Under the pieces are notes generated by a model, which worked only from the letters and a program-made list of their open reading frames with translations, did no database searches and had not been told where the DNA came from. DNA of 28,158 nt, from the IMG/VR virus record IMGVR_UViG_3300035526_000093, positions 1-28,158 of that record, one strand, 5' to 3'. The translations under genes and the position numbers were made by a program. Position 1 is the stretch's first letter. Each line of letters starts with the position of its first letter. Positions 975 to 26,854 of this stretch are shown here, piece after piece. Source of the stretch: a virus. Taxonomy: Duplodnaviria; Caudoviricetes.

Positions 975-2161
975 CATTACGTTATAAATCATTTTTTAAT
1001 TATTGACTCCTTAATTTTTACGGATATAGTTATTAATACTTATGAGATGAGTAAATCTCACACAAATAAATTGAAGGATTTTAAATGTTAAAATTAGAAC
1101 CATTCAAAAACGAAATATTAGAACTTTATAACTCTGGACATACAGTTAAAGAAATAGCAAGTAGATTTAATTGCTACAATCAACCAGTTTATAACTTGAT
1201 TAAGAAATACTCTAAACTAATAAAGAGAGATCAAAAACCAAAGCAAAACCCTGGAGATACTAAATACTTTAACAATATAGACTCAGACATCAAGGCATAT
1301 ATAGTTGGCTTTATAGCTGCAGATGGAGCAATAGTTAAGAGATCTCATAGAGACGAGCATCAGTTAACAATAACCATACACAGAAAAGACAAGTCTATCC
1401 TTGATAAAATTAAAGATGAGATAGGATGTGAACATTCTATTACTAATATCAATAGGCCATTTTCACATGATCCAACTAAAAGCACAGATCATGTAAGACT
1501 TGTTCAATCAAACAAGCACATTATTAAAGACCTAATCAATTTAGGTATTAAACCTAAAAAATCACTATCTATGCCTAATTTAATTCTAAATATTCCAAAA
1601 CAACACAGAAAATCTTTTATTCTTGGATACTTTGACGGAGATGGCTCTTTTACAATACAAAAATTCCAAGATGGAAAATGTTTACGCAAAAGAGGTTACG
1701 TACAAATAAGAGGAACAAAAGAACTTCTGCTTGGAATTGCAGATGAGCTACAGTTAACATCTTACTCACTATCTAAGAAAGATAAAATATGTAACTTATC
1801 AATTGGTTCAAAGCAAAACATCAAAACTTTTTTTTCAATTTACAGTAATAATAACTTCTATCTTGATCGAAAGTATTCAAAATTTATAGAATACTTTAAT
1901 ATGATAAATTAAGATCAGACTATATCACCATCCTTAGCATTACCTATTAGGATGCTCGGCGCTCGTGTCAGGCTTATTGGTAGATTCCTCACCTGTTAGT
2001 CGTTACACCTTCCTACTTACTTTTATATCATTCAGTAGGCTTGGCACGGGATTAAAGCCATAGTTACTCCTTCCCCGTTAGCATGCGATAAAGCACACAC
2101 CCTCAATGAGGTTCACCGAATTTTCACTTATATATTACTATATAAGGGCACACTTATTTTT
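975..2161 (-). mobile_element. Group I intron in the JAB gene
   Basis: Exon 1 ends ...CACTCGCAT (U) and can pair with GTGTG in a P1 helix with a U.G pair; core elements AATCCCGTGCCAAGC (Q-like), GTAACGACTA (R) and GATATAGTCTGA (S) at about 1915-2060; splicing rebuilds HSH...FFSGVD. The 3' splice site is uncertain by a few nt. Confidence 0.85.
1085..1912 (+). CDS. LAGLIDADG homing endonuclease with N-terminal HTH (intron-encoded, antisense to intron)
   Basis: Two LAGLIDADG motifs: YIVGFIAADG and FILGYFDGDG. Confidence 0.9.
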   Translation: MLKLEPFKNEILELYNSGHTVKEIASRFNCYNQPVYNLIKKYSKLIKRDQKPKQNPGDTKYFNNIDSDIKAYIVGFIAADGAIVKRSHRDEHQLTITIHRKDKSILDKIKDEIGCEHSITNINRPFSHDPTKSTDHVRLVQSNKHIIKDLINLGIKPKKSLSMPNLILNIPKQHRKSFILGYFDGDGSFTIQKFQDGKCLRKRGYVQIRGTKELLLGIADELQLTSYSLSKKDKICNLSIGSKQNIKTFFSIYSNNNFYLDRKYSKFIEYFNMIN

Positions 2162-2581
2162 ATGCGAGTGGATATCCATAAGCACTTTGCATCCAGGAAA
2201 CATATCCCAAACACCTTGCAAATCAAAACTTACACGCGCAGAAGAAAGGCTCTGCTTAGGTACATGAAGAAAGAATTCATCTTCTTTTGGGTTATACATA
2301 ACTAGCACATATGCTTCAGTTTTGTTTTGATTAACCTCTTCAGCATATCTAAAGAACTTAATGGTTTCCCAGAACAGGTTAATAGGAATCTTTCTAGGGA
2401 GAATAGAGATTCTTTCTTTTCCTTCAGGAACACCAGGAATACCATCTACCTTAGTAACAATCCACCCACATGCATTAGGTCTAATAAGAAAAATCCCATT
2501 AGAACAAATTGCATACGTTACAAGCCCAAGGCCAGATTTATCTTCAGGAATTCCATAAACAACATCAAAAAACGGATTCAT
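2162..2581 (-). CDS. JAB/MPN+ metalloprotease (PRTRC protein A-like), exon 1
   Basis: Catalytic Glu region (KTEAYVLV), PKQ, and DIHSH at the exon end. Confidence 0.85.
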
Positions 2582-3297
2582 TAATAGCCCCCAAATGTAT
2601 TTTTTCCAACATCAATATAAAGCTCATCAGGAAAAGTTTCTTTTCCTTCAAGATACTCAAATAGTCCGACATGCGTATCAAAGCCTAGGCTCTTAAATAG
2701 TCGACCTTGAAATAGATGATTATTAAATGGTGCTGCAAATAAACGATCTATATACATAGGAAGCCCCATCAAAGATGTAAATGATCCAGACAGGCTATTA
2801 GATCCCCAGCAAATCCATCCATTATCAGAAATGTTTGGAAATGGAAGAGCATATAGTTTGCTTTTATCATTAAGCAATACAGCATTTTCTTTTACTGCAA
2901 ATAAACGTGTATCAGAAATGGTATATGTACCATTATTAACCCTAAGGATAAATTTCATTACAAGATTTGGTCTAACAGAATCAAACTTTTTGTCGCCGAC
3001 AGTAGCAACAAATTTAGATTCAGGACTAAACAAAATAATTTCAGTATTAGTACCTTTTTCAATATAACGAATCGTACCAATAGGAAGAATAGGGGTTTTC
3101 ATCCCAACATTCTGATCTTTAAAGACTTTTAATAAAGATTCAATAGAAACCGTTTTTTTAGATTTAACACCAGTTTCAAAAATATCCAAAGTATTATTAT
3201 TTCTTACAGGAGAAACAGGAGATGTAACAATTGCATAGTCTCCAAATAACTCGATATTCAAACTTTCACTTTGTTTCTTTTCTACTTTTTCACTCAT
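2581..3297 (-). CDS. Prokaryotic E2-like protein (Prok-E2 family D / PRTRC protein B-like)
   Basis: LYALPFPNISDNGWICWG motif with the candidate catalytic Cys; located between Ubl and JAB/E1 genes. Confidence 0.8.
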   Translation of the reverse strand: MSEKVEKKQSESLNIELFGDYAIVTSPVSPVRNNNTLDIFETGVKSKKTVSIESLLKVFKDQNVGMKTPILPIGTIRYIEKGTNTEIILFSPESKFVATVGDKKFDSVRPNLVMKFILRVNNGTYTISDTRLFAVKENAVLLNDKSKLYALPFPNISDNGWICWGSNSLSGSFTSLMGLPMYIDRLFAAPFNNHLFQGRLFKSLGFDTHVGLFEYLEGKETFPDELYIDVGKNTFGGY

Positions 3298-4325
3298 ACA
3301 TTAATCTCCCGAATAGAAGCACAAAATCTTCTAACTTTAGCACTAAGATTGCGGACAATACCGGCCGTACTTTCATTTTTTCTAAAAGAACCCCATCCAG
3401 TAAATAATTCAGCAAGATGCTTTATGTCACTAAAAGAACAGTCAGGAACTGCATCAGACATAAATCTATTCATCTTATCAGGATTATCTTTACAATAGGT
3501 ATATAGAAGCTCTAATGAACTATACATATCACGAAAATCACAACCAATTATTCTATTTTCTTGCTCAGAAGGATCCGTTGTATCTTCAGGTATTGCACAC
3601 AAGTCATTTATTGACCCAGTTTTACCTTTAAGAAAGCGCATCAAATTTGAAAATGTTATAGAAAAATCATCCTTTGGAACAACTCTTCCATCATCATCCA
3701 CTATAAATTTATCAATATATTTTTCAAAATAATCGAAAATTACACCAAGATAAAAATCAATATTAGCAATAAATTTTATTTCATTCGATATCTTTTCAAA
3801 GATATATCCTTCATTCAAAACCTTATGCTTTACTTCAGGATCTTCTTCTTCATCTTGTAAGATAGTATCTCTTTCTTTTAGAAATTCATTTATTTCATGA
3901 ACAAATGAAGTGGACACACAAAGCCCAAGACCACCTGCAGCCTTTGGAGATATGTTTATAAAATTAGAGCTAATAGCACCCATATCTTCTAGTATAGCAG
4001 TAAGCTCGCCATAAAAGAACAAAGCAAATATATCAATAAAGCCATTGGCATATAAATACTTTTTAATATTAAAATCTAGATAAACATTCCCATAATTAAT
4101 AAATAAACGTTCTACGCAATTAGAAAGAAACGAATTCCTATCATTTAGTATATGCTTTAGTCTTGTTTTAACATAAAATGCAAGCTTTTTCTCTAAGTGT
4201 CTACCATTATATACAGATGTAAAAGAAGAAGACTTAATAACCTTGTTTTTATATAACTCAGAGATTATATATGCATATGATAACTTGCCCAAATAATCTC
4301 TTGCTCTATAATCATTAATAATCAC
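3294..4325 (-). CDS. Hypothetical protein in the Ubl operon
   Basis: 343 aa ORF with 4-bp overlaps to both neighbours. Confidence 0.7.
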   Translation of the reverse strand: MIINDYRARDYLGKLSYAYIISELYKNKVIKSSSFTSVYNGRHLEKKLAFYVKTRLKHILNDRNSFLSNCVERLFINYGNVYLDFNIKKYLYANGFIDIFALFFYGELTAILEDMGAISSNFINISPKAAGGLGLCVSTSFVHEINEFLKERDTILQDEEEDPEVKHKVLNEGYIFEKISNEIKFIANIDFYLGVIFDYFEKYIDKFIVDDDGRVVPKDDFSITFSNLMRFLKGKTGSINDLCAIPEDTTDPSEQENRIIGCDFRDMYSSLELLYTYCKDNPDKMNRFMSDAVPDCSFSDIKHLAELFTGWGSFRKNESTAGIVRNLSAKVRRFCASIREINV

Positions 4326-4678
4326 TCTACAAGCTCCTGATATGGAATTACTCCACGTTTTAGATAATAATCAAAATCGATATCACTATGAGACTTTTGC
4401 AATAGACGGCGTATACTATAAAATGTATTATATTTACCGCGTGCTTTTTCTACCAAAAGAAAAGATTTTTTAAGTCTAGACTCAAGATCATCAACTAAGG
4501 ACAATCTTTTAATTGTAGTACATTTATCTAAATCTTTGAGTAAATCTTCCAGAATATCTGTACTTAAAACCTCGACTTCTTCCACTTCTTCAAGATCAAG
4601 TATTGCCTCAAAAAGAGATAAAGGTTTAGCTTCTTCAGGAGCATCATTATCGTTTATTATTTCATTTTCAATTTCCAT
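4322..4678 (-). CDS. Hypothetical protein with acidic N-terminus, in the Ubl operon
   Basis: 118 aa; GGAG RBS; overlaps next gene. Confidence 0.7.
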   Translation of the reverse strand: MEIENEIINDNDAPEEAKPLSLFEAILDLEEVEEVEVLSTDILEDLLKDLDKCTTIKRLSLVDDLESRLKKSFLLVEKARGKYNTFYSIRRLLQKSHSDIDFDYYLKRGVIPYQELVE

Positions 4679-4691
4679 AATTACTCCAGAT

Positions 4692-4716
4692 AAAAATAGG
4701 GGAGATTTCTCTCCCC
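4692..4716 (-). terminator. Rho-independent terminator after the Ubl gene
   Basis: GGGGAGA-GAAA-TCTCCCC followed by TATTTTT on the minus strand. Confidence 0.75.
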
Positions 4717-4735
4717 GTAATTTATTTAATTTTAA

Positions 4736-4948
4736 TTACGCAATTGCGCCTTTGGTACCAAGGCGTTCTGCAAAAGTGATATATTTTACACCATCTTCAA
4801 TGCGAACAGTAGCAGCACAATTAGCAATAACCGGGAAGACACCTGCGAACATTTCAACGATAGTTTCCTGATCGTAGTCACCTTTAACAGTACTTACCTG
4901 GTCAGTATTAGCGATTTCAACAACAGTTTCATAAATTTCAGTAGCCAT
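4736..4948 (-). CDS. Prokaryotic ubiquitin-like protein (PRTRC protein C-like)
   Basis: 70 aa; FP-x-x-AN motif and C-terminal F-x-x-R-x-GTKG as in PRTRC-C, plus a 3-residue tail (AIA). Confidence 0.75.
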   Translation of the reverse strand: MATEIYETVVEIANTDQVSTVKGDYDQETIVEMFAGVFPVIANCAATVRIEDGVKYITFAERLGTKGAIA

Positions 4949-5018: not shown

Positions 5019-5987
5019 TTATTCGTACTCATCAAAATTTGGACTTGTAGTTCCATTTACAAAATATTCATAAATATGTGAATCATTTTGTACCATTCCA
5101 ATTGTCCCAATAGCTAGCAGTAACCAATTCCTAGGATCCATCTCATATCCTCTTTTGATATATTTCTGCACCCTTGGAAAATGACTCAGTTTATTAGGGA
5201 CATTTATAAATCTGAGTTTTTTATCTCTAAGATCGTGAATAGCACCTTTGGTCCATATTATATTCAGACCATCATATGCCATTGTAGAAATTGTCAAGTC
5301 AAATTCACTCAGTAACTCTTCAACAGAATTAATTATTTTTCTCATACATTGTATGGTTAGGCGAGAGCTTATATTAATAAACTCAGTCAGATGTGGCTTT
5401 TCATTAACAATCCACATGCCTTTATTTTTTCGCAAATGAGATACAACTTTTTTTCTTTCTTTTTCATTTGCAAAGTACAGATCATAATCTCTTTCAATGT
5501 CTTCTTCACCCAGACACCAGCTTCCTACTTTTCCTCCAGCAAGGATAAATTTAAGCCCCTTAGAGTACAAGTCATCAACAAAATCTAGACTATTATTTTT
5601 CTTTACCTTGAACCTACGTTCAAATTTCTTTCTATCAGCACAATAGAACTTGTTATCAGTAATTAAGACTCTAGATATAAATGGACCAAACTTTTTAAAT
5701 AAATAGTCAGAATTCTCCATTGATGAACCATAAAATAAGTCTTTTTCAAAGTCACTAGCAGTAATAGCAGTAGTAGTCCAGTTGTTTATAAAAGTATCCA
5801 TTGTAAGATTATTAGTTACAAGATTAGTTCCTAGAGCAGTTACTGTTCCGGCAGTAGCAAGCTGCTCAGTTTGATAAGCTAATGTGTTGTTTTCAGCAAA
5901 CTGAGTAAATTCTTCTACGACATTAGGATCTGTCTGTTCTTCACCTTCATCTCGGACAAAATATATTTCATCATCCATTAATAGCAC
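5019..5987 (-). CDS. Nucleotidyltransferase (Pol beta superfamily, CCA/poly(A) polymerase head-like)
   Basis: LAGG...RDYDLYF, FDLTISTMAYD and R-x-x-KY-x-x-RGY motifs; start overlaps the RT 3' end. Confidence 0.75.
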   Translation of the reverse strand: MLLMDDEIYFVRDEGEEQTDPNVVEEFTQFAENNTLAYQTEQLATAGTVTALGTNLVTNNLTMDTFINNWTTTAITASDFEKDLFYGSSMENSDYLFKKFGPFISRVLITDNKFYCADRKKFERRFKVKKNNSLDFVDDLYSKGLKFILAGGKVGSWCLGEEDIERDYDLYFANEKERKKVVSHLRKNKGMWIVNEKPHLTEFINISSRLTIQCMRKIINSVEELLSEFDLTISTMAYDGLNIIWTKGAIHDLRDKKLRFINVPNKLSHFPRVQKYIKRGYEMDPRNWLLLAIGTIGMVQNDSHIYEYFVNGTTSPNFDEYE

Positions 5988-6714
5988 CTATTAGTTTATC
6001 TTTTTGGAAAGAGTTAATACCATTAACATAACTAAGTAGACCAAGCTCTTTATCGCCAAGATTATTCTGATGTATAGCAGCTCTTATTTTAAGCCTAGTT
6101 TCCTTACATACAGAAGGAACAGAATTTACATTTATTCCAAGAACACGTTGCCTTCCACTTTTAGGCATAAACTTAATTTTCTTCTCATTGATAGCAAGAT
6201 TTATCTTATTCAATCTTACCTTAATCATGTTTATAATAAATCTTTTATCAAGATAATCATATCCTGAAAGAATAATATCATCAGCATATCTAGAATAATC
6301 TATATTAAACTCAGATAGCCTATTAAATACATCCTCATCAAACTCTCTCATATAAACATTAGCGATAGCAGGACTACAAGGAGAACCTTGCACAAGTCTT
6401 CCGTTATATCCAACGAATATCTGTTCTTCCTCACTCAAAAATCCTAAATCAGATACTTTTATAGAAGGAAAGAAGTTTTTAACATCAATAGTAAGAACCC
6501 AATCTTTATCAGAATGAACCCTTGCACAATCTACAGCAGATCTGTCTTTAACAAATCCATAATTAGCACTAGATATCCACTCATCTAGCTCTAATCGTTT
6601 TTTAATAGCATGTTGGACTTTCTTGAGGTCAGCTGATGGAGAGAAGATTTTTCTCTTCCCTCCACTCGGCTTCTTTACCCAAAAAATACGATAGGACATG
6701 TCTTTATTTTCCAT
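5971..6714 (-). CDS. Retron-type reverse transcriptase (compact, 247 aa)
   Basis: KPSGGKRKIFSP, DVKNFFPSI, QGSPCSP, YADD; retron region X variant CARVH (NAxxH) and region Y variant VLG (VTG). Confidence 0.9.
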   Translation of the reverse strand: MENKDMSYRIFWVKKPSGGKRKIFSPSADLKKVQHAIKKRLELDEWISSANYGFVKDRSAVDCARVHSDKDWVLTIDVKNFFPSIKVSDLGFLSEEEQIFVGYNGRLVQGSPCSPAIANVYMREFDEDVFNRLSEFNIDYSRYADDIILSGYDYLDKRFIINMIKVRLNKINLAINEKKIKFMPKSGRQRVLGINVNSVPSVCKETRLKIRAAIHQNNLGDKELGLLSYVNGINSFQKDKLIGAING

Positions 6715-6748
6715 AACATTTCCCCAAAAAAAAATTAAAAAATTGTAT

Positions 6749-6771
6749 AAAAAGCATACCTTTGTATGCTT
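6749..6771 (-). terminator. Hairpin with U-run between the ncRNA and the RT gene
   Basis: AAGCATAC-AAAG-GTATGCTT-TTT on the minus strand. Confidence 0.45.
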
Positions 6772-7034
6772 AAGATACTCAATACCGGTAAAAGGGTACG
6801 ACGCGTTTTAGCTCAGCTCGAGCTAAACACGCGGTGGGCCCGGCCGGATCCCAGCGTGCACAAAGCGCAGCTGCAGTCACGTGGGGGCGGCGCAAGACTG
6901 GGCGGATATTTTTGGGGACCAAAAATCAGCATCCGCACAGTTTTGCATTTACCAGGTATTTAATCAATAGAAAAACTGAACTTGTAACGTAGTGTAAAGT
7001 CAGAGTTTATCTATTGATTAGGTCCGATCTTAGC
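6768..7034 (-). ncRNA. Putative retron ncRNA (msr-msd)
   Basis: Non-coding, highly structured region directly upstream of the RT; terminal inverted repeat GCTTAAGAT (6768-6776) / ATCTTAGC (7027-7034); hairpin 6961-7020; long stem 6781-6792/6948-6960 enclosing hairpins 6802-6833 and 6892-6946. Confidence 0.7.
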
Positions 7035-7049
7035 AAGACAGAAACTGTC

Positions 7050-7544
7050 TTACAGCTTTTCTGTTAGAGTGTCATTTGTGATCAGCAAAACTTTATAACA
7101 ATCACCAACTTCCTCTAACCGTGGTTCACATAGCTCCAATTGCATTCTTCTAACAACATCAATCGGAACCTTACGATCCCGATTTTGTTGATTTAGCATG
7201 CTTTTCGCTACAGAGCATGGGCAATAGAAAATAATAATTTCAGTTTCCTTCATCTTATTGCATTCTCTAATTGTCTTATATATTTTCTGCCTATCTTTCA
7301 GCTTTATAGATGTGTTATCAAGAATAATATCATCATCATTTAATAAGGCTTCTGTAAACCTTTTATATACAAGTGTCCACACTCTTTTATTTGCAGTTTG
7401 GTTTCCAGCATCTCCAGTTAGCTCTTCTCTAATAGCATCAGCACTGATATAAGTTGCTGAAATGCCCATTTTATCTGCAAACTTTTTTACCATCGTTGTT
7501 TTACCACTACCTGGTATCCCAACAGTAATAATTACTCTAGCCAT
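7050..7544 (-). CDS. P-loop kinase, polynucleotide kinase-like (AAA_33)
   Basis: GIPGSGKT Walker A, ISADAIR, ILDNT, R-x-R-x-VP lid. Confidence 0.85.
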   Translation of the reverse strand: MARVIITVGIPGSGKTTMVKKFADKMGISATYISADAIREELTGDAGNQTANKRVWTLVYKRFTEALLNDDDIILDNTSIKLKDRQKIYKTIRECNKMKETEIIIFYCPCSVAKSMLNQQNRDRKVPIDVVRRMQLELCEPRLEEVGDCYKVLLITNDTLTEKL

Positions 7545-8227
7545 GACTTTCCCATAAGTAGAGAGAAATCTTCGTGTGAATCTAAAAAGATAGACTCATC
7601 GTCCCTGATAAACTTTCCATCTTCAAGGTATATAGTACATCCATTTTTCCATCTATCTTCTAGATTAGTCCAGTTAACACCTTTCGAATGTAGCATTTCA
7701 TGCATATCAGCACGTTTCTTACCATGTAACTCTTTATCGCTAAAGTGAGCCCGAGATAGCATTTGTAGGCTATTTCTTTCCCAATCTTTTTGACGCCAGA
7801 TAAAGTAATTACATACTTCATCCTCAGGTATATTAAATACCCTTGCATCAAACATAGCAAGCCTTTCATATTCATAATAACTATTAAATGCAGCAGTAGC
7901 AATACTAGCACTTACTGAGCACATCTTTTGCACATTATATTTAAACCAAGCATCGGTATGAATGGTATCAAAGTCTGTTACTAGGATAGAAATCTCATCA
8001 GATTGTGTATACCCCAACTTTGCGCCTTGAATATTATTCAATAAATATTCCATCGTATATACCATTGCACCATTTAGATACTTATCAAACGGCTTAATAC
8101 AATGTTTAGTAAAAGTATGAAAAGCTTTTCCATCTATTCTAATGATAGCAGGAGTCCTACGAGTCAGAAAGTTTCTACTAACCGACTCATAGCACTTCAT
8201 TCTATCGCCTAATGAATCTTTTTTCAT
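7532..8227 (-). CDS. thg1: tRNA(His) guanylyltransferase Thg1-like protein
   Basis: RIDGKAFHTFT, GYTQSDEIS, FDAR, YFIWRQ-x-D motifs. Confidence 0.92.
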   Translation of the reverse strand: MKKDSLGDRMKCYESVSRNFLTRRTPAIIRIDGKAFHTFTKHCIKPFDKYLNGAMVYTMEYLLNNIQGAKLGYTQSDEISILVTDFDTIHTDAWFKYNVQKMCSVSASIATAAFNSYYEYERLAMFDARVFNIPEDEVCNYFIWRQKDWERNSLQMLSRAHFSDKELHGKKRADMHEMLHSKGVNWTNLEDRWKNGCTIYLEDGKFIRDDESIFLDSHEDFSLLMGKSWLE

Positions 8228-8552
8228 AATAAAATCCTATAAATAGAAGCTTGCCAAGATGAGTCATATCCGCCACCCCAAGGATCTCGTAATGAATCAT
8301 GAGGGGCTAAATGTGATGGCTTTGAAACAACACCTTCTAGATTAAGCTTATGCAGTGCATGTTTTACTAAATGTGTTTTCACACGCAAGTATTCTGCAAC
8401 TTCTTCTGCAGTAATTCTTGCATCCCAATGACCAGTATTATTTGGTCTTTTAACAAGACCATTTATAACTTTATCAATGAAATCTTTAGTTCCATCATAT
8501 ACTTGCTTTTTAGATCGTTTCTTAATCCCAATAGGTTTAAGTTTATTTCCAT
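8224..8552 (-). CDS. Unlisted winged-HTH-like ORF with no canonical in-frame start (possible frameshift)
   Basis: Open frame ...ITAEEVAEYLRVKTHLVKHALHKLNLEGVV...; its TGA overlaps the Thg1 ATG (ATGA). Confidence 0.5.
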
Positions 8553-9559
8553 TCTGTACCTTTGCGTAGCTTATATCTTTCGCTTACATATTTAAGGACA
8601 AGTCGCTTACCAAGCTTCATTTCTTCACGCTCTTTTACAGGAGCAATAACACAGCCTTCCATCATATGGCTTGCACCAGTATGTGTTGTATCAGCATTAT
8701 TAAACTGAAGAACTTTATCTTTAGAGTAAGGTCCACGATATAGCACATTAACGCGCTTAAGGCCATATTTATTACATAGATCCTGGAACTCATCAACATT
8801 CAAGAACCTATCATTTACTTTAGCCGCAAATAGCACATAATCAATCTTACCATTCTTAAGACCATATTTCAGGTCTTGCACACCTAGCACCTCCCCATAT
8901 ACATGAACAAGCTTAGGCAGATTAGCAAACTCAGGATTTTCATTAATTACACGAACAAAAACATTATTTTTATTCGCTTCATTGTTTTTCATCCAATAAT
9001 TATGAGAATGGCTAATAAGAACATCATCATATGTTTTTGCTACTCCAAAGTTAGCACCATGATACTTTTCAGTAATAACAACTTCCTCACCTTCTACAAG
9101 TAAAGAATTGTACTTCTGAAAGTGTTCAGGCTCAGGGAAGATTTCACGTCCAGTTACAGGACGAATAACCTGCCCAGACATTTCCTTAGGGATTGGAGCT
9201 TCATATTTAGTAACACCAAATACGCCAGACACTTCAACACCTGGTTTTAGCTCCGTAGATACTTCTTTAGGCCAATACTTCTCAGCGGGGATAAGCAACC
9301 CTTCAGAAAAGATGCCACGAATTTTAGCAGCTCTTAATCGCTTAGAATAAAAGTTTTCAATACCAAACTCTTTTACCCATTTCTCTGGTAGCACAGCATC
9401 TACCGGGAAATAAAAAGCTAAATCTCCCTTTTTAAAATTACCTTTTCCACTAACACATACATAATCAAGGCCTTCCATTTTAACAATGTCCAACCTATCA
9501 GCATCAGGATGCTTAGTAACTTCCTTAATAACAACTACTTCAACTTTTAATTCAGCCAT
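8543..9559 (-). CDS. RNA ligase, DRB0094/Rnl2-like, with N-terminal OB-fold
   Basis: HPDADRL N-terminus; TEKYHGAN (motif I), YGE, EGCVI, LKYVS; likely start MAELKV at 9559. Confidence 0.9.
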   Translation of the reverse strand: MAELKVEVVVIKEVTKHPDADRLDIVKMEGLDYVCVSGKGNFKKGDLAFYFPVDAVLPEKWVKEFGIENFYSKRLRAAKIRGIFSEGLLIPAEKYWPKEVSTELKPGVEVSGVFGVTKYEAPIPKEMSGQVIRPVTGREIFPEPEHFQKYNSLLVEGEEVVITEKYHGANFGVAKTYDDVLISHSHNYWMKNNEANKNNVFVRVINENPEFANLPKLVHVYGEVLGVQDLKYGLKNGKIDYVLFAAKVNDRFLNVDEFQDLCNKYGLKRVNVLYRGPYSKDKVLQFNNADTTHTGASHMMEGCVIAPVKEREEMKLGKRLVLKYVSERYKLRKGTEWK

Positions 9560-9686
9560 TTTCTTTCCATGCCCTTTTCGCGTCTTTGTAAAGTTTACGA
9601 TATCCATAAGTTTTTAGTGCTGATGGATGCTTATCAAGAAGCTCTTTTAAATCTTTTTTAATTTGTTTTACTCTTTTTCCACGCAT
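9552..9686 (-). CDS. Small basic hypothetical protein (44 aa)
   Basis: MRGKRVKQIKKDLK...KENG; fills the gap and overlaps the ligase start. Confidence 0.5.
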   Translation of the reverse strand: MRGKRVKQIKKDLKELLDKHPSALKTYGYRKLYKDAKRAWKENG

Positions 9687-11455: not shown

Positions 11456-12562
11456 TTAAAATAAATTCTTAATTATAGAACCAGCACTATTGCGCCATCT
11501 ATTAAGGAGCTCTCTTTTATCATACTTAACACCAAATTCTTTTCTCAGCATAAATAGCATAGATGAAAATTTACTCTTATTCTTTATATATAAGGCGAAT
11601 TCTTTTTGGTCTTCTATTCCTTGAGTTTCTTTATATAAAAGCTCAAGTATGGACAGTTCCTTATTAAGCATTTCAGTAATAGCATGTACAGAATCTTTAC
11701 ATTCAGGAAAATATGTTATTACTTCATCTGTTTCTCCTGCAAGAATAAATGGCACCAAATTTTTAGGTAAAAATAGGTTATCATTACCTTTTAATCTATG
11801 CAAAGCAAGATATGTCTTACTTTTTATTTTTATCCTAAGCCCATTAATATCACGAACTACAATGCCCTCATATGTTGGGTCAGAATTTTCTTTATCATTA
11901 AGGTGCAAGATAACATCATCTATGCTTTTAAAATGATAAATAACAGGACAATTAAACCCATAGTCCTTGGCAATAGATGCAACATTCTTGATAGGAAAAT
12001 CAAAATAATCATATTCAGAATGATTTATAACCCCAATCAAATAACATGTAGGGGAATTATACTGACGAACAACCTTATTGTATAAAGAGCAAAACTCAAA
12101 CACATAAGTACAATTACTATCAAGAGAAAAAGTTTCTGGAGTTTTCCTTAAAGCTTGCCAGACAAGATCAGCCCATGACATACCACATATATGCATATTA
12201 TATTCTGCAAAAGATCCACGAGTATTAATTCTCCATGATCCCATATATGAGTAAATCAGGATAAGAGATCCATCCTCCTTATCAGTAGCATAAGACCCAT
12301 TCCAATTAAATTTACTAGTTAACTCCAGTGCTTCGCCATAGTTAAAGAACCTATCAAAAGCTCTAGCTACAACATTATATGTGTGTTTTTCAAGAACTAA
12401 TCCTCTGCATTCGCAGCAGATACGTTCCATTTTAGGGGAGCCTATTTGAGAATAGTTCAGTATTATTAGTGGATCATAAGGATGATAAGTTATCTCTATG
12501 CCATATTCTGCAGCTAGATCTTCAGGAGTCTTTCCCGATCTAAGATATTTTTGTACTTCCAT
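11456..12562 (-). CDS. RNA ligase 1 (T4 Rnl1-like)
   Basis: ECRGL, FDRFFN, KEDGSL (motif I), FEF, EGIVV, KIKS. Confidence 0.9.
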   Translation of the reverse strand: MEVQKYLRSGKTPEDLAAEYGIEITYHPYDPLIILNYSQIGSPKMERICCECRGLVLEKHTYNVVARAFDRFFNYGEALELTSKFNWNGSYATDKEDGSLILIYSYMGSWRINTRGSFAEYNMHICGMSWADLVWQALRKTPETFSLDSNCTYVFEFCSLYNKVVRQYNSPTCYLIGVINHSEYDYFDFPIKNVASIAKDYGFNCPVIYHFKSIDDVILHLNDKENSDPTYEGIVVRDINGLRIKIKSKTYLALHRLKGNDNLFLPKNLVPFILAGETDEVITYFPECKDSVHAITEMLNKELSILELLYKETQGIEDQKEFALYIKNKSKFSSMLFMLRKEFGVKYDKRELLNRWRNSAGSIIKNLF

Positions 12563-13900: not shown

Positions 13901-15112
13901 TTAACCACGCAATTGTACTAGGTATTTTATGTTTGCTTGATTTTGGTTGTAAACAATAAACTCATTATTTCTTAATGACTTACCAGCTTTAGCAAAAACA
14001 GAATCATAGTTGCCTTTCTTTTTAAGGCTAGATTCATCTAAACGGCTACACCAGCTCTCAAAAGCATCAACCTCTAAGCTGTTGCCAAGATGAACTTCAA
14101 ATAATGCCATAAACGCCTCATTTGAGCTACCTCTTGCCCAATAAGATCCTCTAGAAGATGTATAACCAAGAGACTTTTGAGCCTTATCAGCAAAGTAAGT
14201 TCCATAGCCAAACATTTTACCAGAGATAACAACATTAGAGGGCCGAAGTAGCAGACCATTTTCTAGTATAGATAGCCAATTTTCATTACGACTACCATGA
14301 AAGAATAGTTCACATTTCTTGTTATCAACTTTAGACATCCACTCATCAAAGCATTTCTGAGTTTTATTATTTACAACACGATAAGCTGTAACAAATCTAT
14401 CAGCAATATTATCAAGTTTTTTCTTGATCATTTCTTCCTCTTCAGGAGTAGCAGGTCTAATATCTAGCCCCATTGCTTCAAGAATAGTTGCATTCTTATC
14501 GCTATTTTCTTTTACTAATTCTACTTGCTTAACCTGGGAAGCCATATTATCAAGCAGATTTTGTTCTTTAGTAATTACACTATCAAGAAGTTCATCATCA
14601 ACCTGAACAAGTAAGTGAGATTTTACATCACTCATTTTCCTAGGTATAACCATAAACAGACTAATAAGCTTATTGTTTATATCTGTAACACTTACATTAT
14701 CAGATTCAGATAAAGCAACAATGTCATCAAGTATGGACTGTGCTTCATCAATTTGCTTTTTAGTAACGCTATCAGCAGTTACAGTATAGTTATTTGCGAT
14801 TTCTTTCTTTGCATATAGCTGGAGCTTAGTAAATAAACATTTAACATCATTGTCACTGATATCATGAAATTCAATACTATCAGATACAGTTTCAGCAAAA
14901 AGCTCAGTTACATCACGATAGCCTTTTCTAACTTTTGATTTACGAGTAGATTCCCACTTGCTAATGGGATAGATTTTTGTTTGACAAGCAGCTCCTACCC
15001 TACCAAATTCTGCACGGAAATAACCGTCTTCGGTATCAATCATGTGATAATACTTGTTATTATTGTTTTCTGCGCCGACATATATTAGTTTTATAATATT
15101 TTTATAGTCCAT
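13901..15112 (-). CDS. PARP-family ADP-ribosyltransferase with WGR-like and regulatory domains
   Basis: NNNKYY...FGRVG...K-x-x-KGY (WGR); FHGSR, GKMFGYGTYFADKAQKSLGY, NEFIVY (H-Y-E triad). Confidence 0.92.
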   Translation of the reverse strand: MDYKNIIKLIYVGAENNNNKYYHMIDTEDGYFRAEFGRVGAACQTKIYPISKWESTRKSKVRKGYRDVTELFAETVSDSIEFHDISDNDVKCLFTKLQLYAKKEIANNYTVTADSVTKKQIDEAQSILDDIVALSESDNVSVTDINNKLISLFMVIPRKMSDVKSHLLVQVDDELLDSVITKEQNLLDNMASQVKQVELVKENSDKNATILEAMGLDIRPATPEEEEMIKKKLDNIADRFVTAYRVVNNKTQKCFDEWMSKVDNKKCELFFHGSRNENWLSILENGLLLRPSNVVISGKMFGYGTYFADKAQKSLGYTSSRGSYWARGSSNEAFMALFEVHLGNSLEVDAFESWCSRLDESSLKKKGNYDSVFAKAGKSLRNNEFIVYNQNQANIKYLVQLRG

Positions 15113-18339: not shown

Positions 18340-18485
18340 AAAGATTCGTTTTAAATTTGGAGGACGGTTTTAAAGAGGACCCGTCCAAAACTCTATATAT
18401 TTTGAATCTGCCACCTAGCCTTGCGGCAGATTCCAAGTCGAATTCATATATTTTTTAATTACATATATATAGTATTACTTCTTTC

Positions 18486-18637
18486 ATTGAGCACTATAGT
18501 TAAAGCTAAGAAATTTTGCTCTTCCACTGAGCTACAGGCCAATATATCAGGACACGAACTAATGCTCATGTACTCATGGCTGGCCTGGAGGGGCTCGAAC
18601 CCTCGCACAAATTTTTGATTGGAAATAAAGTGCCAAT
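18486..18637 (-). ncRNA. Circularly permuted tRNA-like RNA (YrlA/Y RNA-like)
   Basis: T-arm GAGGGTTCGAGCCCCTC and CAGGCCA-G-CCA come before TGGCCTG-TA-GCTCAGTGGAAGAGC (D-arm); closing stems AATTT/AAATT and ATTGGCACT/AGTGCTCAAT. Confidence 0.7.
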
Positions 18638-19823: not shown

Positions 19824-19897
19824 TGGCGGCCTATGAGAGAATTGAACTCTCGACTCTGATTCGACAGACCAGGGTTTTACCACTAAACTAATAGGCC
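19824..19897 (-). tRNA. tRNA-Asp(GTC)
   Basis: GGCCTAT/ATAGGCC-G-CCA; anticodon arm CTGGT-CT-GTC-GA-ATCAG; TTCAA T-loop. Confidence 0.92.
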
Positions 19898-19966
19898 AAA
19901 AATTAAGTGACTCTAAACTGTTATTAACACTTAGAGTCCCATCAGTACTCTGCTAGGAGATACAAT

Positions 19967-20390
19967 ATGAAACACTGCAATATTTGCGATACAACCAAGC
20001 CTCTGACAGATTTTCACAGAAAAGGAACAAAAGCAGATGGATCAAATAAATATCAATCCAAATGCAAAGTATGCCAAGCAGCATACCTAAAAGAACACTA
20101 TAGTAAAAAATAAAGAATACTATAAAGATAAAGCGCTCAAGAATAAACAAACTTTAAAAGAGTGGATGCGTAATTACAAATCAACTCTTTCATGTAAGAT
20201 CTGTAATGAGTCTGCAACATGCTGTCTAGACTTTCATCATAGAGATCCTAGTCAAAAAGAATTTGTACTTAGCGATATGGCTAATCGCGGCCAATCAATA
20301 AAGGTTATTGAGAAAGAAATCGCTAAATGTATTGTTCTTTGCTCAAATTGCCATAGGAAATTACATGCAGGTTTAATTGATCTTCCATAA
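19967..20390 (+). pseudogene. HNH endonuclease with a 1-nt frameshift in an A6 run near 20105
   Basis: AGGAG RBS; MKHCNICDTTKPLTDF...KCKVC, then in another frame CKIC...LDFHH...LCSNCHRKLH. Confidence 0.75.
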
Positions 20391-20392
20391 AT

Positions 20393-20470
20393 TGGCATGC
20401 CCGGCAGGACTCGAACCTGCGACAGTCGGGGTAGAAACCCGATACTCTGATCCAACTGAGTTACGGACAC
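20393..20470 (-). tRNA. tRNA-Arg(TCT)
   Basis: TCGGG-TT-TCT-AC-CCCGA anticodon arm; GCAGGTTCGAGTCCTGC; CCA encoded. Confidence 0.92.
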
Positions 20471-20575
20471 ACATAATTTGCTTTAATGACTAGGAATAAG
20501 TAATAACAATATTTAGTGTGTATTTATCCATTATATACGATGTAATTGTTATTTGCACCATAGTCGAATTAAAAC

Positions 20576-20983
20576 TTAAATTACCTCAGTCAGAAGTCGC
20601 CAATCTTTCAGTGTATTTCCATCAAACTGAATTTCAACAGGCTTTCCAACAAGTTTAGTGACGTCATTTACTTTTGCTTCTTTTAGTAGACTATCTAATT
20701 TTCTACAAATAGCAACAAGGTCTTTATCACGATCTTCTTCTGTCCACTTGGTATTCTCAGTGACTTCAATAATAGATGGTGACCAGCATCCCATGTGCCA
20801 GCTTACTCCACCCCATTTGCCTTCAAATGTAATTGTGACACCAAACATAGCATCTTGATATCCACCAATACCAAATTGAACGGATACGATTTTACCAAGC
20901 TCTTTTTTATATTCTACTTCTTCTGCTGCATTAGTAGCAGCTTCTTCTTCAATTACTACCTGACTCTCATTTGCTTCTGTCAT
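20576..20983 (-). CDS. Hypothetical protein
   Basis: 135 aa, GGAG RBS. Confidence 0.75.
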   Translation of the reverse strand: MTEANESQVVIEEEAATNAAEEVEYKKELGKIVSVQFGIGGYQDAMFGVTITFEGKWGGVSWHMGCWSPSIIEVTENTKWTEEDRDKDLVAICRKLDSLLKEAKVNDVTKLVGKPVEIQFDGNTLKDWRLLTEVI

Positions 20984-21065
20984 TACATAGCTCCATTAAA
21001 TAGTATGAGCAGTTTTTATACCAGAACTCTGCTCCAAACTGGGGTCCTAAGGATTCTGCCTAGCC

Positions 21066-21395
21066 TCAGCTGGGTGAATCTGCCTTAGTAAAGATCTTTA
21101 CAAATTGACTTACCCATTTAGGAAGTTTTGCTTCTGAGAAGCAGCGATTGCAGCGATCTGCAAACTCAATAAGATCATCCTGAACTGCATAAGGAACTTT
21201 TACCTCAAGAAGTCCGCGATCTACATATGCTTTAGCACGCTTAATTGCTACATCAGTTCCAAACTCATTACTAAACGTATCGCCTTTACGGCATTTAGTA
21301 AAGCCAATAGATACGACATCACTGCCTTCTTCAATGAAAGCAACAAGTACACCTACTTTAGTCCGATCTTTTTTCCGAATAAATTGTTTAATCAT
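21066..21395 (-). CDS. Hypothetical phage protein
   Basis: 109 aa; GFTKC...DTF...G...A..RA pattern. Confidence 0.7.
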   Translation of the reverse strand: MIKQFIRKKDRTKVGVLVAFIEEGSDVVSIGFTKCRKGDTFSNEFGTDVAIKRAKAYVDRGLLEVKVPYAVQDDLIEFADRCNRCFSEAKLPKWVSQFVKIFTKADSPS

Positions 21396-21403
21396 AACAA
21401 TAC

Positions 21404-21583
21404 CTATTTCTTTTTAAATTTAAACATAAAAAATGTAAAAGTTCCACCAAAAAAACCTAGTATAAGACCAGAAATTGCAAGCTTAAGCACTGCTCCAAAA
21501 ATAGCAGAACTTACCATGAAGCTAACACCAATAGCTGCAAGTATGACACCTACAAAAATAGCAATAAAAAGTTTCATCTTCAT
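21404..21583 (-). CDS. Small membrane protein with two TM segments (59 aa)
   Basis: MKMKLFIAIFVGVILAAIGVSFMVSSAIFGAVLKLAISGLILGFFGGTFTFFMFKFKKK; below the ORF-track cutoff. Confidence 0.65.
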   Translation of the reverse strand: MKMKLFIAIFVGVILAAIGVSFMVSSAIFGAVLKLAISGLILGFFGGTFTFFMFKFKKK

Positions 21584-21747
21584 TCCTTAATTAAGGTTGT
21601 TTCAACAAAGAAGCCGTGACAAACTCTTCCATCACTATCCAAGTGATAGCAAGGAAATGTATATTTATCTTTAGCATTTCTATGCTTACTAAAAAATCTT
21701 CTTGTTTTTAATATTTTACCGCAAATAGCACATTTGCATTTATCCAT
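21580..21747 (-). CDS. Small Cys/His-rich protein
   Basis: MDKCKCAICG...H...C; the longer ORF-track start lies inside the tRNA. Confidence 0.55.
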   Translation of the reverse strand: MDKCKCAICGKILKTRRFFSKHRNAKDKYTFPCYHLDSDGRVCHGFFVETTLIKE

Positions 21748-21749
21748 GG

Positions 21750-21825
21750 TGGCAGCTCCGCGCGGATTCGAACCGCGAACTTCTTGGCTCAAAACCAAGC
21801 ACTCTAGCTGTTGAGTTACGGAGCA
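21750..21825 (-). tRNA. tRNA-Gln(TTG)
   Basis: CTTGG-TT-TTG-AG-CCAAG; T-arm CGCGGTTCGAATCCGCG; U1.U72 mismatch; G73-CCA. Confidence 0.9.
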
Positions 21826-21836
21826 TCACAGTTCAT

Positions 21837-22061
21837 CTATATTACTTCTGATAAGTACACTTTAACCATTGGCTCATGTACCGAACAGTAGTATCTTACC
21901 TTATAGTCAACACATTGGTCAATAACTATTTGCTTCATTTCTGGGCTATGTCCGGTAATAATTAGTACATCTTTACCTTCTTCCCAGTTATCATTTATGA
22001 ACCTACAGATAGCACCTGGTGCTTCCGCATGCTTTACTCCATGTAAATCTAACTGTTTCAT
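21837..22061 (-). CDS. Stand-alone Smr domain protein
   Basis: LDLHG and IITG motifs. Confidence 0.8.
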   Translation of the reverse strand: MKQLDLHGVKHAEAPGAICRFINDNWEEGKDVLIITGHSPEMKQIVIDQCVDYKVRYYCSVHEPMVKVYLSEVI

Positions 22062-22064
22062 AGG

Positions 22065-22265
22065 TCAAGGCTCATTTAAGATTAATACCTGAGATGTATC
22101 CATGACACTATCTCGATATGTCTGATTTGAGCATATACCTGCATTTCTTAGTGTACGACGGAGCACATCAATACGACCTCTAGGCCCAGAAGGCTGTCCA
22201 CCAATTGCCCATGTGATAGCTTCCAACAGCAAAGCATCTTCCATTGACATTTCAATGCTTACCAT
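22065..22265 (-). CDS. Hypothetical protein
   Basis: ORF track; true start may be further upstream. Confidence 0.55.
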   Translation of the reverse strand: MVSIEMSMEDALLLEAITWAIGGQPSGPRGRIDVLRRTLRNAGICSNQTYRDSVMDTSQVLILNEP

Positions 22266-22399
22266 TTTTCTTTCTTCTATAACAACACGTTCATAGTTTT
22301 TCTATATAAGTTTCTACCTTCATTTTTCTCTCCAAGATTAACACTACCCTCCTATTTCTAGGAGGGCAATCATATTAGTATGCTATAAATAGCAGTGAC

Positions 22400-22702
22400 T
22401 TATGAGCGTAGTCTTCCGTATTTGTTATATCTACGCTCAATGCTTGACACGAAGTTATTGTTTTCTTTTGGAATCTCAATCTTAGAATGTATCATATAGA
22501 GAGCATTGTGATATTGATGTGGATCATAAGCTTTATCGCCACATAAAATAGCTCTATATGCCCCGCTTTTAAATCCAGTATATAACAATGCACTAAACGT
22601 ACAATTTCCTTTATATAATGACACTTCAATTACATAATAGGAGCATTCATCAAGATCTTTGACCACATCTTGTAAGTAGACAAAGTTATTATTTATATCC
22701 AT
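22400..22702 (-). CDS. Hypothetical protein
   Basis: 100 aa ORF. Confidence 0.65.
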   Translation of the reverse strand: MDINNNFVYLQDVVKDLDECSYYVIEVSLYKGNCTFSALLYTGFKSGAYRAILCGDKAYDPHQYHNALYMIHSKIEIPKENNNFVSSIERRYNKYGRLRS

Positions 22703-22857
22703 TACGATAACCCTGTGTTAGCACGTACTTCGTCAAGAGTCATGTTCCTAAAGAGACGACCACTATCATATACTACATAGTTCTCACCACACAGATCATG
22801 CTCCATAAGCATTGGATATTCTTTATCTTTAGCTTTTATTGTACTTTTAACTGTCAT
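22702..22857 (-). pseudogene. Short ORF resembling the C-terminus of nicotinamide phosphoribosyltransferase (NadV)
   Basis: Ends VVYDSGRLFRNMTLDEVRANTGLS; near the NMNAT-Nudix gene. Confidence 0.4.
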
Positions 22858-23233
22858 TTTTTATACTTTCATTGGTTAAGAATTCATATAGAGTAGAAAT
22901 AAATAATTCAATATCGGTTACAAGGTTGATAGGTAATAGATATGTAACAACAGGATCAATCTTAAAAATATCAGATTTGGGACCAATACTTTTTATTTGT
23001 CCATACTTTTTAACAAAATCAGGCCACCACTTTTGTTTTTCACACCACATAAGAATCGTGCGCAGCTTAAAGTGGTTAAATACATTATGCACATCATTTG
23101 CTTTTTCAACTTCACTAGCCCAAAATTCTTCTCCACAATGGATACATGTTCTTCCATTTATAGAATCTTTAAAGTCATGCCAGCATTTGCCCATAAGCTT
23201 CGCAAAATATTTATTTATTTTTTCTTTATTCAT
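22847..23233 (-). CDS. Hypothetical protein
   Basis: 128 aa; CWH...CIHCG. Confidence 0.7.
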   Translation of the reverse strand: MNKEKINKYFAKLMGKCWHDFKDSINGRTCIHCGEEFWASEVEKANDVHNVFNHFKLRTILMWCEKQKWWPDFVKKYGQIKSIGPKSDIFKIDPVVTYLLPINLVTDIELFISTLYEFLTNESIKNDS

Positions 23234-23365
23234 ATTCTTTTAAACTTACCTCTTAAAATAAGTCCAGTCTTCGGCCCAATCAAATAAGTATCACATATGT
23301 ATAGTGTACAGAAATAGGAAACTTCCTATCTTTCAGGGAGCTTAATACATCTTCCCAGTTAATCA

Positions 23366-24475
23366 TTATCGCCTTCCAATAAGATTAAAGATAATGTCAG
23401 AATGATCAGAGAATATCTGACCTCTATCAGCCATCTCTTCAAATTCACACAAAGGAACCCATTTGGCTTCAGCAGCGTCATCAGCAGCTTTAACTTCAGG
23501 CAATCCCGCAGCAGAATTAGGTAGCTCAATAAGATACGCTTCAGTAATCATACGCCCACGAAGATCGCGGCTAGGATGATCATATATTTTATGCTTTACA
23601 ATAAATCTTTCATTAACCTCTAAGCCAGCTTCCTCTTTAAGTTCACGTAAGCAGCACTCTCTAAGAGTTTCATTTTCATCCAAGAACCCGCCAGGCATAG
23701 CCCAGTTACCTTTACCAGGATTATGCCCACGCTTAATAAGAAGAATATGTCCAGACTGAATTACAGCAGCGTCTGCAGCTATAAATTTAGGAGGAAATAG
23801 AGCAAATTGCCATGATTCTTTATAAGCTTTTACCTTCTTATACTCATCCAAAAGACAAGCAAACTCATCAGTTTCACGCCAATGAGATAAATAATTAACA
23901 ACACTCTTTGGCAGAACCTTAGAAGCAATAACACTAAAGTCGTGATCAAGCTTCTCAAAATACAAAGTGCGTAGATCACTAGCATTAAGTGCAGCCATAG
24001 AGCTTACTTCTTTATAGTCCCACTGAGGAAACAAGTCCAAGTAAAAGCTAGACTCATCTTTACGATGACCTATCAAGCAAACTTTGGGTCGAGGAGAAAA
24101 AGCACCATTAGTATTGCCAGTGTAAATAATGCGAGCAACTTGCTTTTGTACTTCCTGGGCCCACATTTGATCATTGTAGACATAATCATTAATACCACGT
24201 ACAGTGAACTTAAGACTAGAGTTCGTAACACCATATCCCTCAACAACCTCATTGATAGCAAGATCAATCATTATCTCACGATCCTGTACAGTCCATGGGT
24301 TTTTAATTGAACGAGGTCTGTTTTTGGATCCAGTAAGAATGATTACATGATTAGCAAGACTAAATGCTTCTTTAATCACATGTAGGTGACCAACGTGAGG
24401 AGGCTCAAGCCTTCCTATGAATACACAGTAGTCGTATTCCTTTTTAGGAGTTTCAATCATTTTATCTTCCCACAT
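23366..24475 (-). CDS. nadM: Bifunctional NMN adenylyltransferase / Nudix (ADP-ribose) hydrolase (NadM-Nudix)
   Basis: GRLEPPHVGH (HxGH), KNPW, SSFYL; Nudix box GGFLDENETLRECCLRELKEEAGL. Confidence 0.93.
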   Translation of the reverse strand: MWEDKMIETPKKEYDYCVFIGRLEPPHVGHLHVIKEAFSLANHVIILTGSKNRPRSIKNPWTVQDREIMIDLAINEVVEGYGVTNSSLKFTVRGINDYVYNDQMWAQEVQKQVARIIYTGNTNGAFSPRPKVCLIGHRKDESSFYLDLFPQWDYKEVSSMAALNASDLRTLYFEKLDHDFSVIASKVLPKSVVNYLSHWRETDEFACLLDEYKKVKAYKESWQFALFPPKFIAADAAVIQSGHILLIKRGHNPGKGNWAMPGGFLDENETLRECCLRELKEEAGLEVNERFIVKHKIYDHPSRDLRGRMITEAYLIELPNSAAGLPEVKAADDAAEAKWVPLCEFEEMADRGQIFSDHSDIIFNLIGRR

Positions 24476-24492
24476 ATTATATCCTTTAAATT

Positions 24493-24516
24493 AAAAAAGG
24501 GGACTAACGTCCCCTT
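24493..24516 (-). terminator. Rho-independent terminator
   Basis: AAGGGGAC-GTTA-GTCCCCTT-TTTT. Confidence 0.8.
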
Positions 24517-24543
24517 CTCTGTTATTATGTCTTCGTTTTTGTT

Positions 24544-24888
24544 TTAGAAGTTACGGACTTCTACTGCCGGTTTTTCATCTTCACCAAGAAGTTCATCCAA
24601 GCGATCAACATAGCGCTGAGCACGAGCATTTTTCTTCTCAATAAGGGCTTTTACTTCAGCAGTTTTAGCTTCAGTAGCAACCAATTTAGCACGCTTCTCT
24701 TCAAGCTTTTGCTCAGCCTTAATAGAAGCCTTGGTATTCATTTCGATACCCTTTTGCGCCTGTACTTTGGCTTGCTCGTGAAAATGAAGACTTTTCTCGA
24801 TATGATAGCTACCATCAATAAAGTATCGAACTACATCGAGTTTCATAATAAAATTAGTAATTTTTTCCAACATTTTTTTTCTCTCCAT
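24544..24888 (-). CDS. Coiled-coil hypothetical protein
   Basis: 114 aa, Ala/Lys/Glu-rich. Confidence 0.7.
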   Translation of the reverse strand: MERKKMLEKITNFIMKLDVVRYFIDGSYHIEKSLHFHEQAKVQAQKGIEMNTKASIKAEQKLEEKRAKLVATEAKTAEVKALIEKKNARAQRYVDRLDELLGEDEKPAVEVRNF

Positions 24889-25030
24889 GAGAACATAAGG
24901 TGTTTTGTTTTGTCTTCATGACAATAACATTTTCGTTTTTACATGATTCACATTTTCCGTTAACTAGTCGTTTAGATAAATGAAAGCAATTTGTACATTT
25001 AAACATATAAAAACTCCTTATAATTATTAT

Positions 25031-25109
25031 TCAGGGAATAAGCGATAACAGTAGCTTGTTAGTCGGATTAAAAGTCTGATTAGAAGTATCTGTTATCTTC
25101 ACCACTGAG
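25031..25109 (-). ncRNA. Minimal Y RNA-like hairpin carrying a tRNA-Lys-like anticodon arm
   Basis: CAGTGGTGAAGATAACAG...CTGTTATCGCTTATTCCCTG stem shares motifs with 27261..27445; internal TCAGA-CTTTTAA-TCCGA. Confidence 0.5.
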
Positions 25110-25169
25110 ATTAAATGGTAGCTGGGAGCTTAAAGTATATAAAATTACCGTAGATTGGTAACATAATTA

Positions 25170-26821: not shown

Positions 26822-26854
26822 TTTATTATCCTAAAAGTTGGTGGGTGCATGTTG

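Follow-up and report, generated by a model that had tools for sequence, protein, structure and literature searches.

The template part of a predicted phage retron carries a catalogue of ten different 6-bp palindromes, and this catalogue is very probably a selected feature of the template. We favour the reading, at a probability of about 0.55, that reverse-transcribed DNA (RT-DNA) bearing the catalogue serves as a decoy for host restriction-modification (R-M) enzymes. The broader proposition that large phages have repeatedly made retrons into programmable DNA-decoy factories, with a list of the commonest restriction sites that is updated by point mutation, is tentative and falls slightly short of even odds. 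The window (the whole stretch of DNA analysed) is a virus record of 28,158 bases with nine tRNA genes. The catalogue lies in non-coding DNA beside a small retron-type reverse transcriptase (RT) gene of an uncultured phage, in the intergenic stretch between a kinase gene (7050-7544) and the RT gene (5971-6714), all on the minus strand.

6784 to 6883, unstranded: ten different 6-bp palindromes of the types AgeI, MluI, XhoI, ApaI, EagI, BamHI, ApaLI, PvuII, PstI and PmlI.

All ten sites listed in an earlier note on this DNA were found where it had placed them, with starts at 6784, 6801, 6817, 6836, 6841, 6846, 6856, 6868, 6871 and 6878 and no type repeated. GCTNAGC, GTAC, GCGC, CGCG, GATC and CCGG, which it also named, are all present, and its count of 75 G+C among the 120 nt of 6781-6900 is correct. 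Its claim that chance would give far fewer sites holds under shuffling of the same 120 nt, which yields means of 2.06 (mononucleotide) and 2.61 (dinucleotide) versus ten observed, with P(≥10) = 1e-4 and 5e-4, respectively (20,000 shuffles). P rises to 0.0023 for 6781-6960 and to 0.026 when all of the intergenic sequence (6715-7050) is taken, so the site signal is local. A pairing-preserving null in which the predicted fold is kept gives a mean of 2.5 and a maximum of 9, and reaches ten in 0/5000 cases. Within 6777-6960, 61 of the 182 palindromic specificities of Biopython's REBASE list are present versus 34 in shuffles, and the rest of the window has at most six distinct palindromes with at least two G/C per 150 nt. 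Eleven palindromes per 120 nt also occur near 18352 (18352-18500), adjoining tRNA-like sequence; this segment was ruled out as the same kind of catalogue because it is AT-rich with TATATA-type runs.

5971 to 6714, minus strand: small retron-clade RT of 247 aa with YADD, CARVH in place of NAXXH and VLG in place of VTG.

Assignment of this enzyme to the retron clade, as first suggested from its letters, is supported by HMMs, PADLOC and the predicted fold. The protein matches Pfam RVT_1 (1.6e-26), its best PADLOC RT model is RT_III-A (1e-51), and it scores 163 bits against NCBIfam retron_St85_RT (NF038233, type II-A), which is under the curated cut-off of 235. The AlphaFold model (pLDDT 92.7) has the retron Eco7, Eco2 and Ec86 RTs as its best Foldseek matches, and HMM and fold matches to DRT, UG, group II and DGR RTs are far weaker. 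No PRTase-like effector of retron type III-A was found among the seven RT neighbours scanned. Retron RT hallmarks are NAXXH in region X and a region Y that starts with VTG, from which some validated retrons deviate, according to the available part of PMC6868368. The family of the window RT comprises about 30 proteins of 240-267 aa with 36-48% identity, across which A64, H67, V191 and G193 are conserved. CARVH and VLG in the window are variants of both motifs.

The RNA predicted upstream of the RT has the following parts.

7026 to 7035, minus strand: predicted a1 arm, from the MFE fold and pair probabilities that sum to 7.5 pairs with 6766-6778.
7025 (or 7024), minus strand: candidate branching G, the first unpaired G after the predicted a1.
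6961 to 7020, minus strand: predicted msr hairpin (inverted repeat I1) with the family motif CTCTGAC...GTTCAG.
About 6777 to 6960, minus strand: predicted msd (template), with inferred boundaries; the predicted RT-DNA is the plus strand.
6781 to 6960, predicted RT-DNA: four-way fold with basal stem 6781-6792/6948-6960 and hairpins A (6794-6841), B (6843-6891) and C (6892-6946).
6767 to 6778, minus strand: predicted a2 arm, which pairs with 7026-7035 in the fold of 6755-7052.
6739 to 6769, minus strand: 3' hairpin plus motif TTTTATACAATTTT (motif 6739-6752), a candidate terminator or promoter element.

The pairing of 7026-7035 with 6767-6778, the unpaired GG, 6961-7020 and 6781-6960 are thus predicted to be a1/a2, branching G, msr and msd. 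This layout puts the catalogue in the msd, in line with the earlier proposal that the sites lie in the templated part. The stem 6781-6792/6948-6960, which the earlier note placed around the array, exists, but it probably forms the foot of the msd fold rather than the a1/a2 arms. Taking this stem for a1/a2 and hairpin C for the msr was rejected because the conserved motif sits in 6961-7020 instead; in addition, hairpin C favours the plus strand and acquires a BamHI site in a natural allele (X6, below). The CTCTGAC...GTTCAG motif is invariant in six aligned units from the window and two related loci (L001 and L081), and the msr hairpin that bears it is likely to be the RT-recognition stem. Unit 1 of L001 is predicted to have the same a1/a2 layout, with CG at the place that matches the window's candidate branching G.

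Folding is strong throughout the region (z = -7 to -10; z = -10 for DNA of 6775-6965). The plus-strand fold has four G-T pairs versus zero G-U pairs on the RNA strand, and hairpins A, B and C all fold better on the plus strand; the msr hairpin has its single wobble on the RNA strand. This G-T bias, which involves small numbers and is absent in L001, suggests a folded single strand, which fits poorly with a working form that is double-stranded. In the window, L001 and L081, RNA units are closed by the TTTTATACAATTTT motif, which has one exact copy in the window. On a contig from run X5, a match to 6724-6758 is surrounded by unrelated sequence, so this motif may be a phage regulatory element. 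No sigma-70 promoter was found in 6600-7300, and no Rfam family was matched by the region's RNA. A 65-aa plus-strand ORF (6766-6963) was rejected as a gene because two single-base insertions in X6 would shift its frame.

Words of the region are contained in 20 runs from 15 studies, with no RNA run listed among them. Contigs were assembled from six of eight runs (X4 and X8 gave none), and those of four other studies overlap parts of the region with natural differences. The X10 contig is identical to the window over 6674-6824, and that of X5 has a single base difference across 6819-7200. X2 and X3 span 6853 onwards, X7 spans only 6952 onwards, and X6, from another study, spans 6718-7058. Collections of plasmids (72,556 records) and phages (50,697 records) contain no match to the region. 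Site density here resembles that of a cloning polylinker, but these independent variant contigs and the lack of plasmid or phage matches refute a synthetic linker or assembly artefact, the chance of which is negligible, and bear out a natural origin.

Within 6777-6960, X6 differs from the window by six substitutions and two insertions. One insertion and two substitutions convert GGATCC (BamHI) to GAATTC (EcoRI) and replace two G-C pairs in the hairpin B stem; GGATCC is regained at 6929, 80 nt off, GCCGGC (NaeI) is gained at 6886, and the XhoI site CTCGAG is lost from a loop. Random edits of this size produce at least three gains in 1.2% of trials and a total of at least 11 sites in 4.8%, and X6 is the single informative allele for site turnover. 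G6887C is common to four runs (X6, X2, X3 and X5), which suggests that the window may hold the derived state.

Similar catalogues occur beside other phage RTs. We scored distinct sites per 150 nt in the 700 nt on either side of 333 distinct RT loci, with a threshold of at least nine; of the 119 genome loci, 39 had flanks too short to be scored. Loci were drawn from 9/64 metagenome, 53/64 viral (first scan) and 20/64 genome parts, so relatives are under-sampled. The threshold was reached at 5/136 viral, 0/77 metagenome and 0/80 bacterial-genome loci.

Catalogue loci, on contigs of 104-215 kb: downstream of the RT in L001; upstream of the RT in L003, L004, L028 and L072.

Elsewhere in these five phages, over 100 kb of each, the count is at most seven. 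The six catalogues (window plus five) differ in content and fall into three RT groups in a quick tree, which requires at least four changes of catalogue label. Together they hold 69 sites and 36 different palindromes, with 67/69 sites distinct within their own locus; GGATCC and CTGCAG each occur in five of the six (P = 0.009). Known Type II specificities are matched by 67/69 sites, which is weak evidence because 56 of the 64 possible palindromes match one. The palindromes reach 8 bp about as often as expected by chance (20/69, P = 0.33), and enrichment ends at 6 bp, which is the size of Type IIP sites. The excess from 4 to 6 bp is circular since loci were chosen on 6-mers, and the six segments in the pooled tests were delimited after their sites had been seen. 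Interrupted five-base sites (2+1+2) are not enriched (80 versus 69, P = 0.10), and how often a palindrome occurs in the catalogues shows no relation to the number of enzymes in Biopython's list (P = 0.21), which is a poor proxy. The expectation that density is kept while individual sites vary is upheld both across relatives and between alleles. Genome-wide avoidance of catalogue sites is weak (observed/expected 0.72-0.96 in phage genomes), and it is no stronger than for other palindromes; the window and one related record (G002) are mild exceptions.

Catalogues are not universal in this family. L081, a close relative with 44% RT identity and the same operon, has at most three sites per 150 nt and no catalogue; L170 has two, and relatives of L003 at 47-48% (L007, L164, L165 and L169) have three to five. 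Two viral and two bacterial loci reached eight sites per 150 nt. These borderline loci are L245 and L247, upstream of 538-aa RTs, and L306 and L310, with P about 0.01 for the two viral loci and 0.04-0.05 for the two bacterial loci. A single-sequence locus search found nothing, whereas an alignment-based search did find loci; searches seeded with L003/L004, L072 and the QGSPCSP pattern gave no further catalogue of at least nine sites. An RNA model built from six units matched only its training units and none in L003, L004, L072 or L028, so the model gives no sign of homology with the RNAs of other clades; L003 and L004 RNAs have only the 5' hairpin and ends in common. In L001 (47%) and L081 (44%), the two loci of the RT family with DNA available, several RNA units are distributed to either side of the RT.

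L001, 3430 to 3990 and 4770 to 5045: retron-like RNA units.
L081, 3585 to 3990 and 4745 to 4900: retron-like RNA units.

Cargos of these units vary and include perfect AT-rich stems (long ones at 3510-3555 in L001 and 3690-3730 in L081), branched folds or a site catalogue.

The earlier note cautioned that sites outside hairpin stems would need intermolecular annealing or a second strand to be double-stranded; this caveat is stronger than it was stated because even in-stem sites are imperfect duplexes. In the window's predicted fold, 0/10 six-base sites are perfectly paired; in six of the ten, five to six bases are paired, but opposite a bulge or mismatch. The only perfectly paired 4-bp cores are CGCG and AGCT, and GATC and CCWGG are not in perfect duplex in this fold. 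Across all six loci (69 sites), a perfect intramolecular duplex occurs only in the two GGATCC copies of L072. The catalogue of L003 folds no better than shuffles (z = -0.57), which indicates that hairpins do not explain the catalogue. Together, the unduplexed sites and the unfolded L003 catalogue suggest that selection acts on linear sequence, which points to a double-stranded form. An RNA-DNA hybrid is an unlikely substrate because only 6 of 223 restriction enzymes are reported to cut such hybrids (PMC3001074, in its available part). RNase H genes occur in three of five related records. Dimerisation through long palindromes was dropped because their extension beyond 6 bp is at chance.

The mechanism that we propose starts with the template part of the phage retron-type RNA, which is likely kept by selection as a non-repeating list of 6-bp sites. 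The adjacent RT would copy this template into many small DNAs; the predicted RT-DNA runs from 6777 to about 6960 on the plus strand and measures about 180 nt. The sites would be read in double-stranded form, since the single-strand fold completes none of them, and second-strand synthesis is the preferred route; retron-Sen1/Se72 would be the precedent because it makes double-stranded DNA, as described in the available part of PMC6868368. Alternatively, mismatched stems may bind enzymes and be cut poorly. The same partial source describes mismatched msDNA that sequesters MutS, and engineered retron DNA is reported to bind transcription factors (bioRxiv 2023.09.27.556556, in part). Many unmethylated copies could then occupy endonucleases (or methyltransferases) early in infection, and the phage genome would escape.

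5019 to 5987, minus strand: Gad2-like (PF26128) nucleotidyltransferase of 322 aa, with a start that overlaps the RT stop.

The earlier note left decoy and sensor functions side by side; the decoy is now favoured and the sensor disfavoured because the neighbouring gene is Gad2-like and was not found in four of the five other catalogue records. The Gad2-like protein has an ESM Atlas score of 0.97 and TM values of 0.75-0.79 to Gad2 clusters, and a precomputed PF26128 label is present on both it and its L001 orthologue; PADLOC gave no match for it. Orthologues with 34-36% identity lie next to the RT in L001 and L081. Among the five related records, an orthologue was found in G001 only, with a 3-sequence profile that may miss distant forms; two of the records without a match (G002-G005) are rated complete. 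This pattern suggests that the catalogue can do without this gene, which makes a sensor less likely. Gad2, for which a nucleotidyltransferase domain is predicted, is used by phages to inhibit Gabija (bioRxiv 2023.05.01.538930, in its available part), and we read the Gad2-like gene as a neighbour in an anti-defence block rather than as a gated toxin. The other catalogue-linked RTs are flanked by HNH or unknown genes, and no known retron effector is present among the ORFs read beside L003, L004, L072 and L028. Some of these flanking genes we take to be YqeY-like and glycosyltransferase-like.

In a sensor, the Gad2-like nucleotidyltransferase would be released or activated when any of the many sites in the RT-DNA is methylated or cleaved. 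We consider this improbable. In its favour, the genes for the RT and the nucleotidyltransferase overlap in the window and lie side by side in L001 and L081, and methylation-triggered retrons exist (Dam for Sen2 and Dcm for Eco1; bioRxiv 2020.06.22.160242 and 2023.08.16.553469, each in part). However, the GATC and CCWGG sensed in Sen2 and Eco1 lie within the msDNA hairpin duplex according to the same sources, whereas the window's sites are not perfect duplexes. L081 carries the nucleotidyltransferase gene but no catalogue, the 3-row profile found no orthologue in G002-G005, and no C5 or N6/N4 methyltransferases were found in the five related records. It is unlikely, although less so, that the RT-DNA acts as a broader decoy that titrates other palindrome-binding host proteins, such as Gabija-type nucleases, orphan methyltransferases or dimeric regulators. 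Inhibition of Gabija by Gad2 (bioRxiv 2023.05.01.538930, in part), the long perfect AT-rich stems that replace catalogues in other units of L001 and L081, and weak genome-wide site avoidance are consistent with this wider target range. Limitation of the excess to 6-bp palindromes, without extension to longer inverted repeats, argues against it, as does, weakly, the match of nearly all catalogue sites to Type II specificities.

It is very unlikely that the sites act in the chromosome or RNA, for example as a cutting or recombination hot spot that mobilises the unit, or in recruitment of a host methyltransferase. Every site is perfectly duplexed in the phage chromosome, and the position of the catalogue unit differs, upstream of the RT in the window but downstream of it in L001, which shows that units move. 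Nevertheless, so many sites present once in the genome would attract cutting, and the catalogue lies inside the predicted template and, in every case, no more than 700 nt from a retron RT. Short palindromes could also be functionless by-products of GC-rich hairpins and template switching in reverse transcription, for which the chance is slim. Strong folding of the region, the lack of catalogues at most RT loci and in some close relatives, and the modest P for the whole intergenic stretch fit such an origin. Against it, the structure-preserving null never reaches ten, L003 is not folded above chance, and the BamHI-to-EcoRI swap takes three coordinated changes; a stem would also double a palindrome in both arms, yet nearly all sites are distinct within their locus. 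The decoy for R-M enzymes thus remains the preferred reading.

Among known systems, the window resembles retrons II-A/III-A (Retron-Eco1/Ec86 and Retron-Sen2/St85) in RT clade and fold and in the predicted a1-msr-msd-a2 RNA upstream of its RT. It differs in being phage-encoded, in its 247-aa RT with CARVH and VLG that falls below the St85 cut-off, in sites that are not in perfect stems, in having no NDT or PRTase effector, and in relatives that bear several RNA units per RT. Sen2 and Eco1 msDNA bears one methyltransferase site that matters, as far as the accessible parts of their descriptions go, whereas the window has ten or more different sites. Retron-Sen1 (Se72), compared here by its description, is a precedent for an RT that makes a second DNA strand, and the available part of that description (PMC6868368) contains no site catalogue. 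Gad2 shares its Pfam label (PF26128) and fold with the window's downstream protein; unlike the window, its description mentions no linked RT in the part available (bioRxiv 2023.05.01.538930). DRT9, a host defence, uses an RT-made poly-dA homopolymer as an SSB sink (PMC13434031, in part); the proposed decoy would likewise be an RT-made DNA sink, but phage-made and sequence-specific. Literature that includes the accessible parts of 2026 reviews (PMC13728456 and PMC13434031), with subscription journals largely uncovered, describes no phage retron with a restriction-site catalogue.

A retron that mass-produces restriction-site bait for a phage would, if confirmed, reverse the defence role of retrons, which are known as host defences. 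It would also represent a broad and easily re-programmed anti-restriction mechanism, in which genuine DNA, produced by reverse transcription, would absorb many R-M enzymes at once. T7 Ocr and ArdA are DNA-mimic anti-restriction proteins aimed at Type I enzymes; the proposed decoy would similarly neutralise a DNA-binding enzyme via a substitute substrate, but one that is phage-made, sequence-specific DNA rather than protein. The X6 allele provides a built-in control because, if the decoy reading is true, activity against EcoRI should be gained and that against XhoI lost. Such a system could provide a compact tool for passing DNA through the R-M barriers of laboratory strains. An RT of 247 aa that carries a payload of 180 nt also holds interest for retron editing.

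The genome setting holds further features of note. Gene order in L001 and L081 is the same as in the window: RT, nucleotidyltransferase and PRTRC-like cluster.

PRTRC-like cluster after the Gad2-like gene: window 2138 to 4948, minus strand; L001 6184 to 8359; L081 5955 to 8621.
tRNA repair and supply set of kinase, Thg1, two RNA ligases and nine tRNA genes: window 7050 to 9607, 11456 to 12562 and 19824 to 27893.
PARP-domain protein with a weak WGR domain, and NadM-Nudix protein: window 13901 to 15112 and 23366 to 24475.

In the window, the PRTRC-like cluster consists of ORFs of 70, 118 and 343 aa, a Prok-E2_D gene (2581-3297) and a weak PRTRC-A match (2138-2581).
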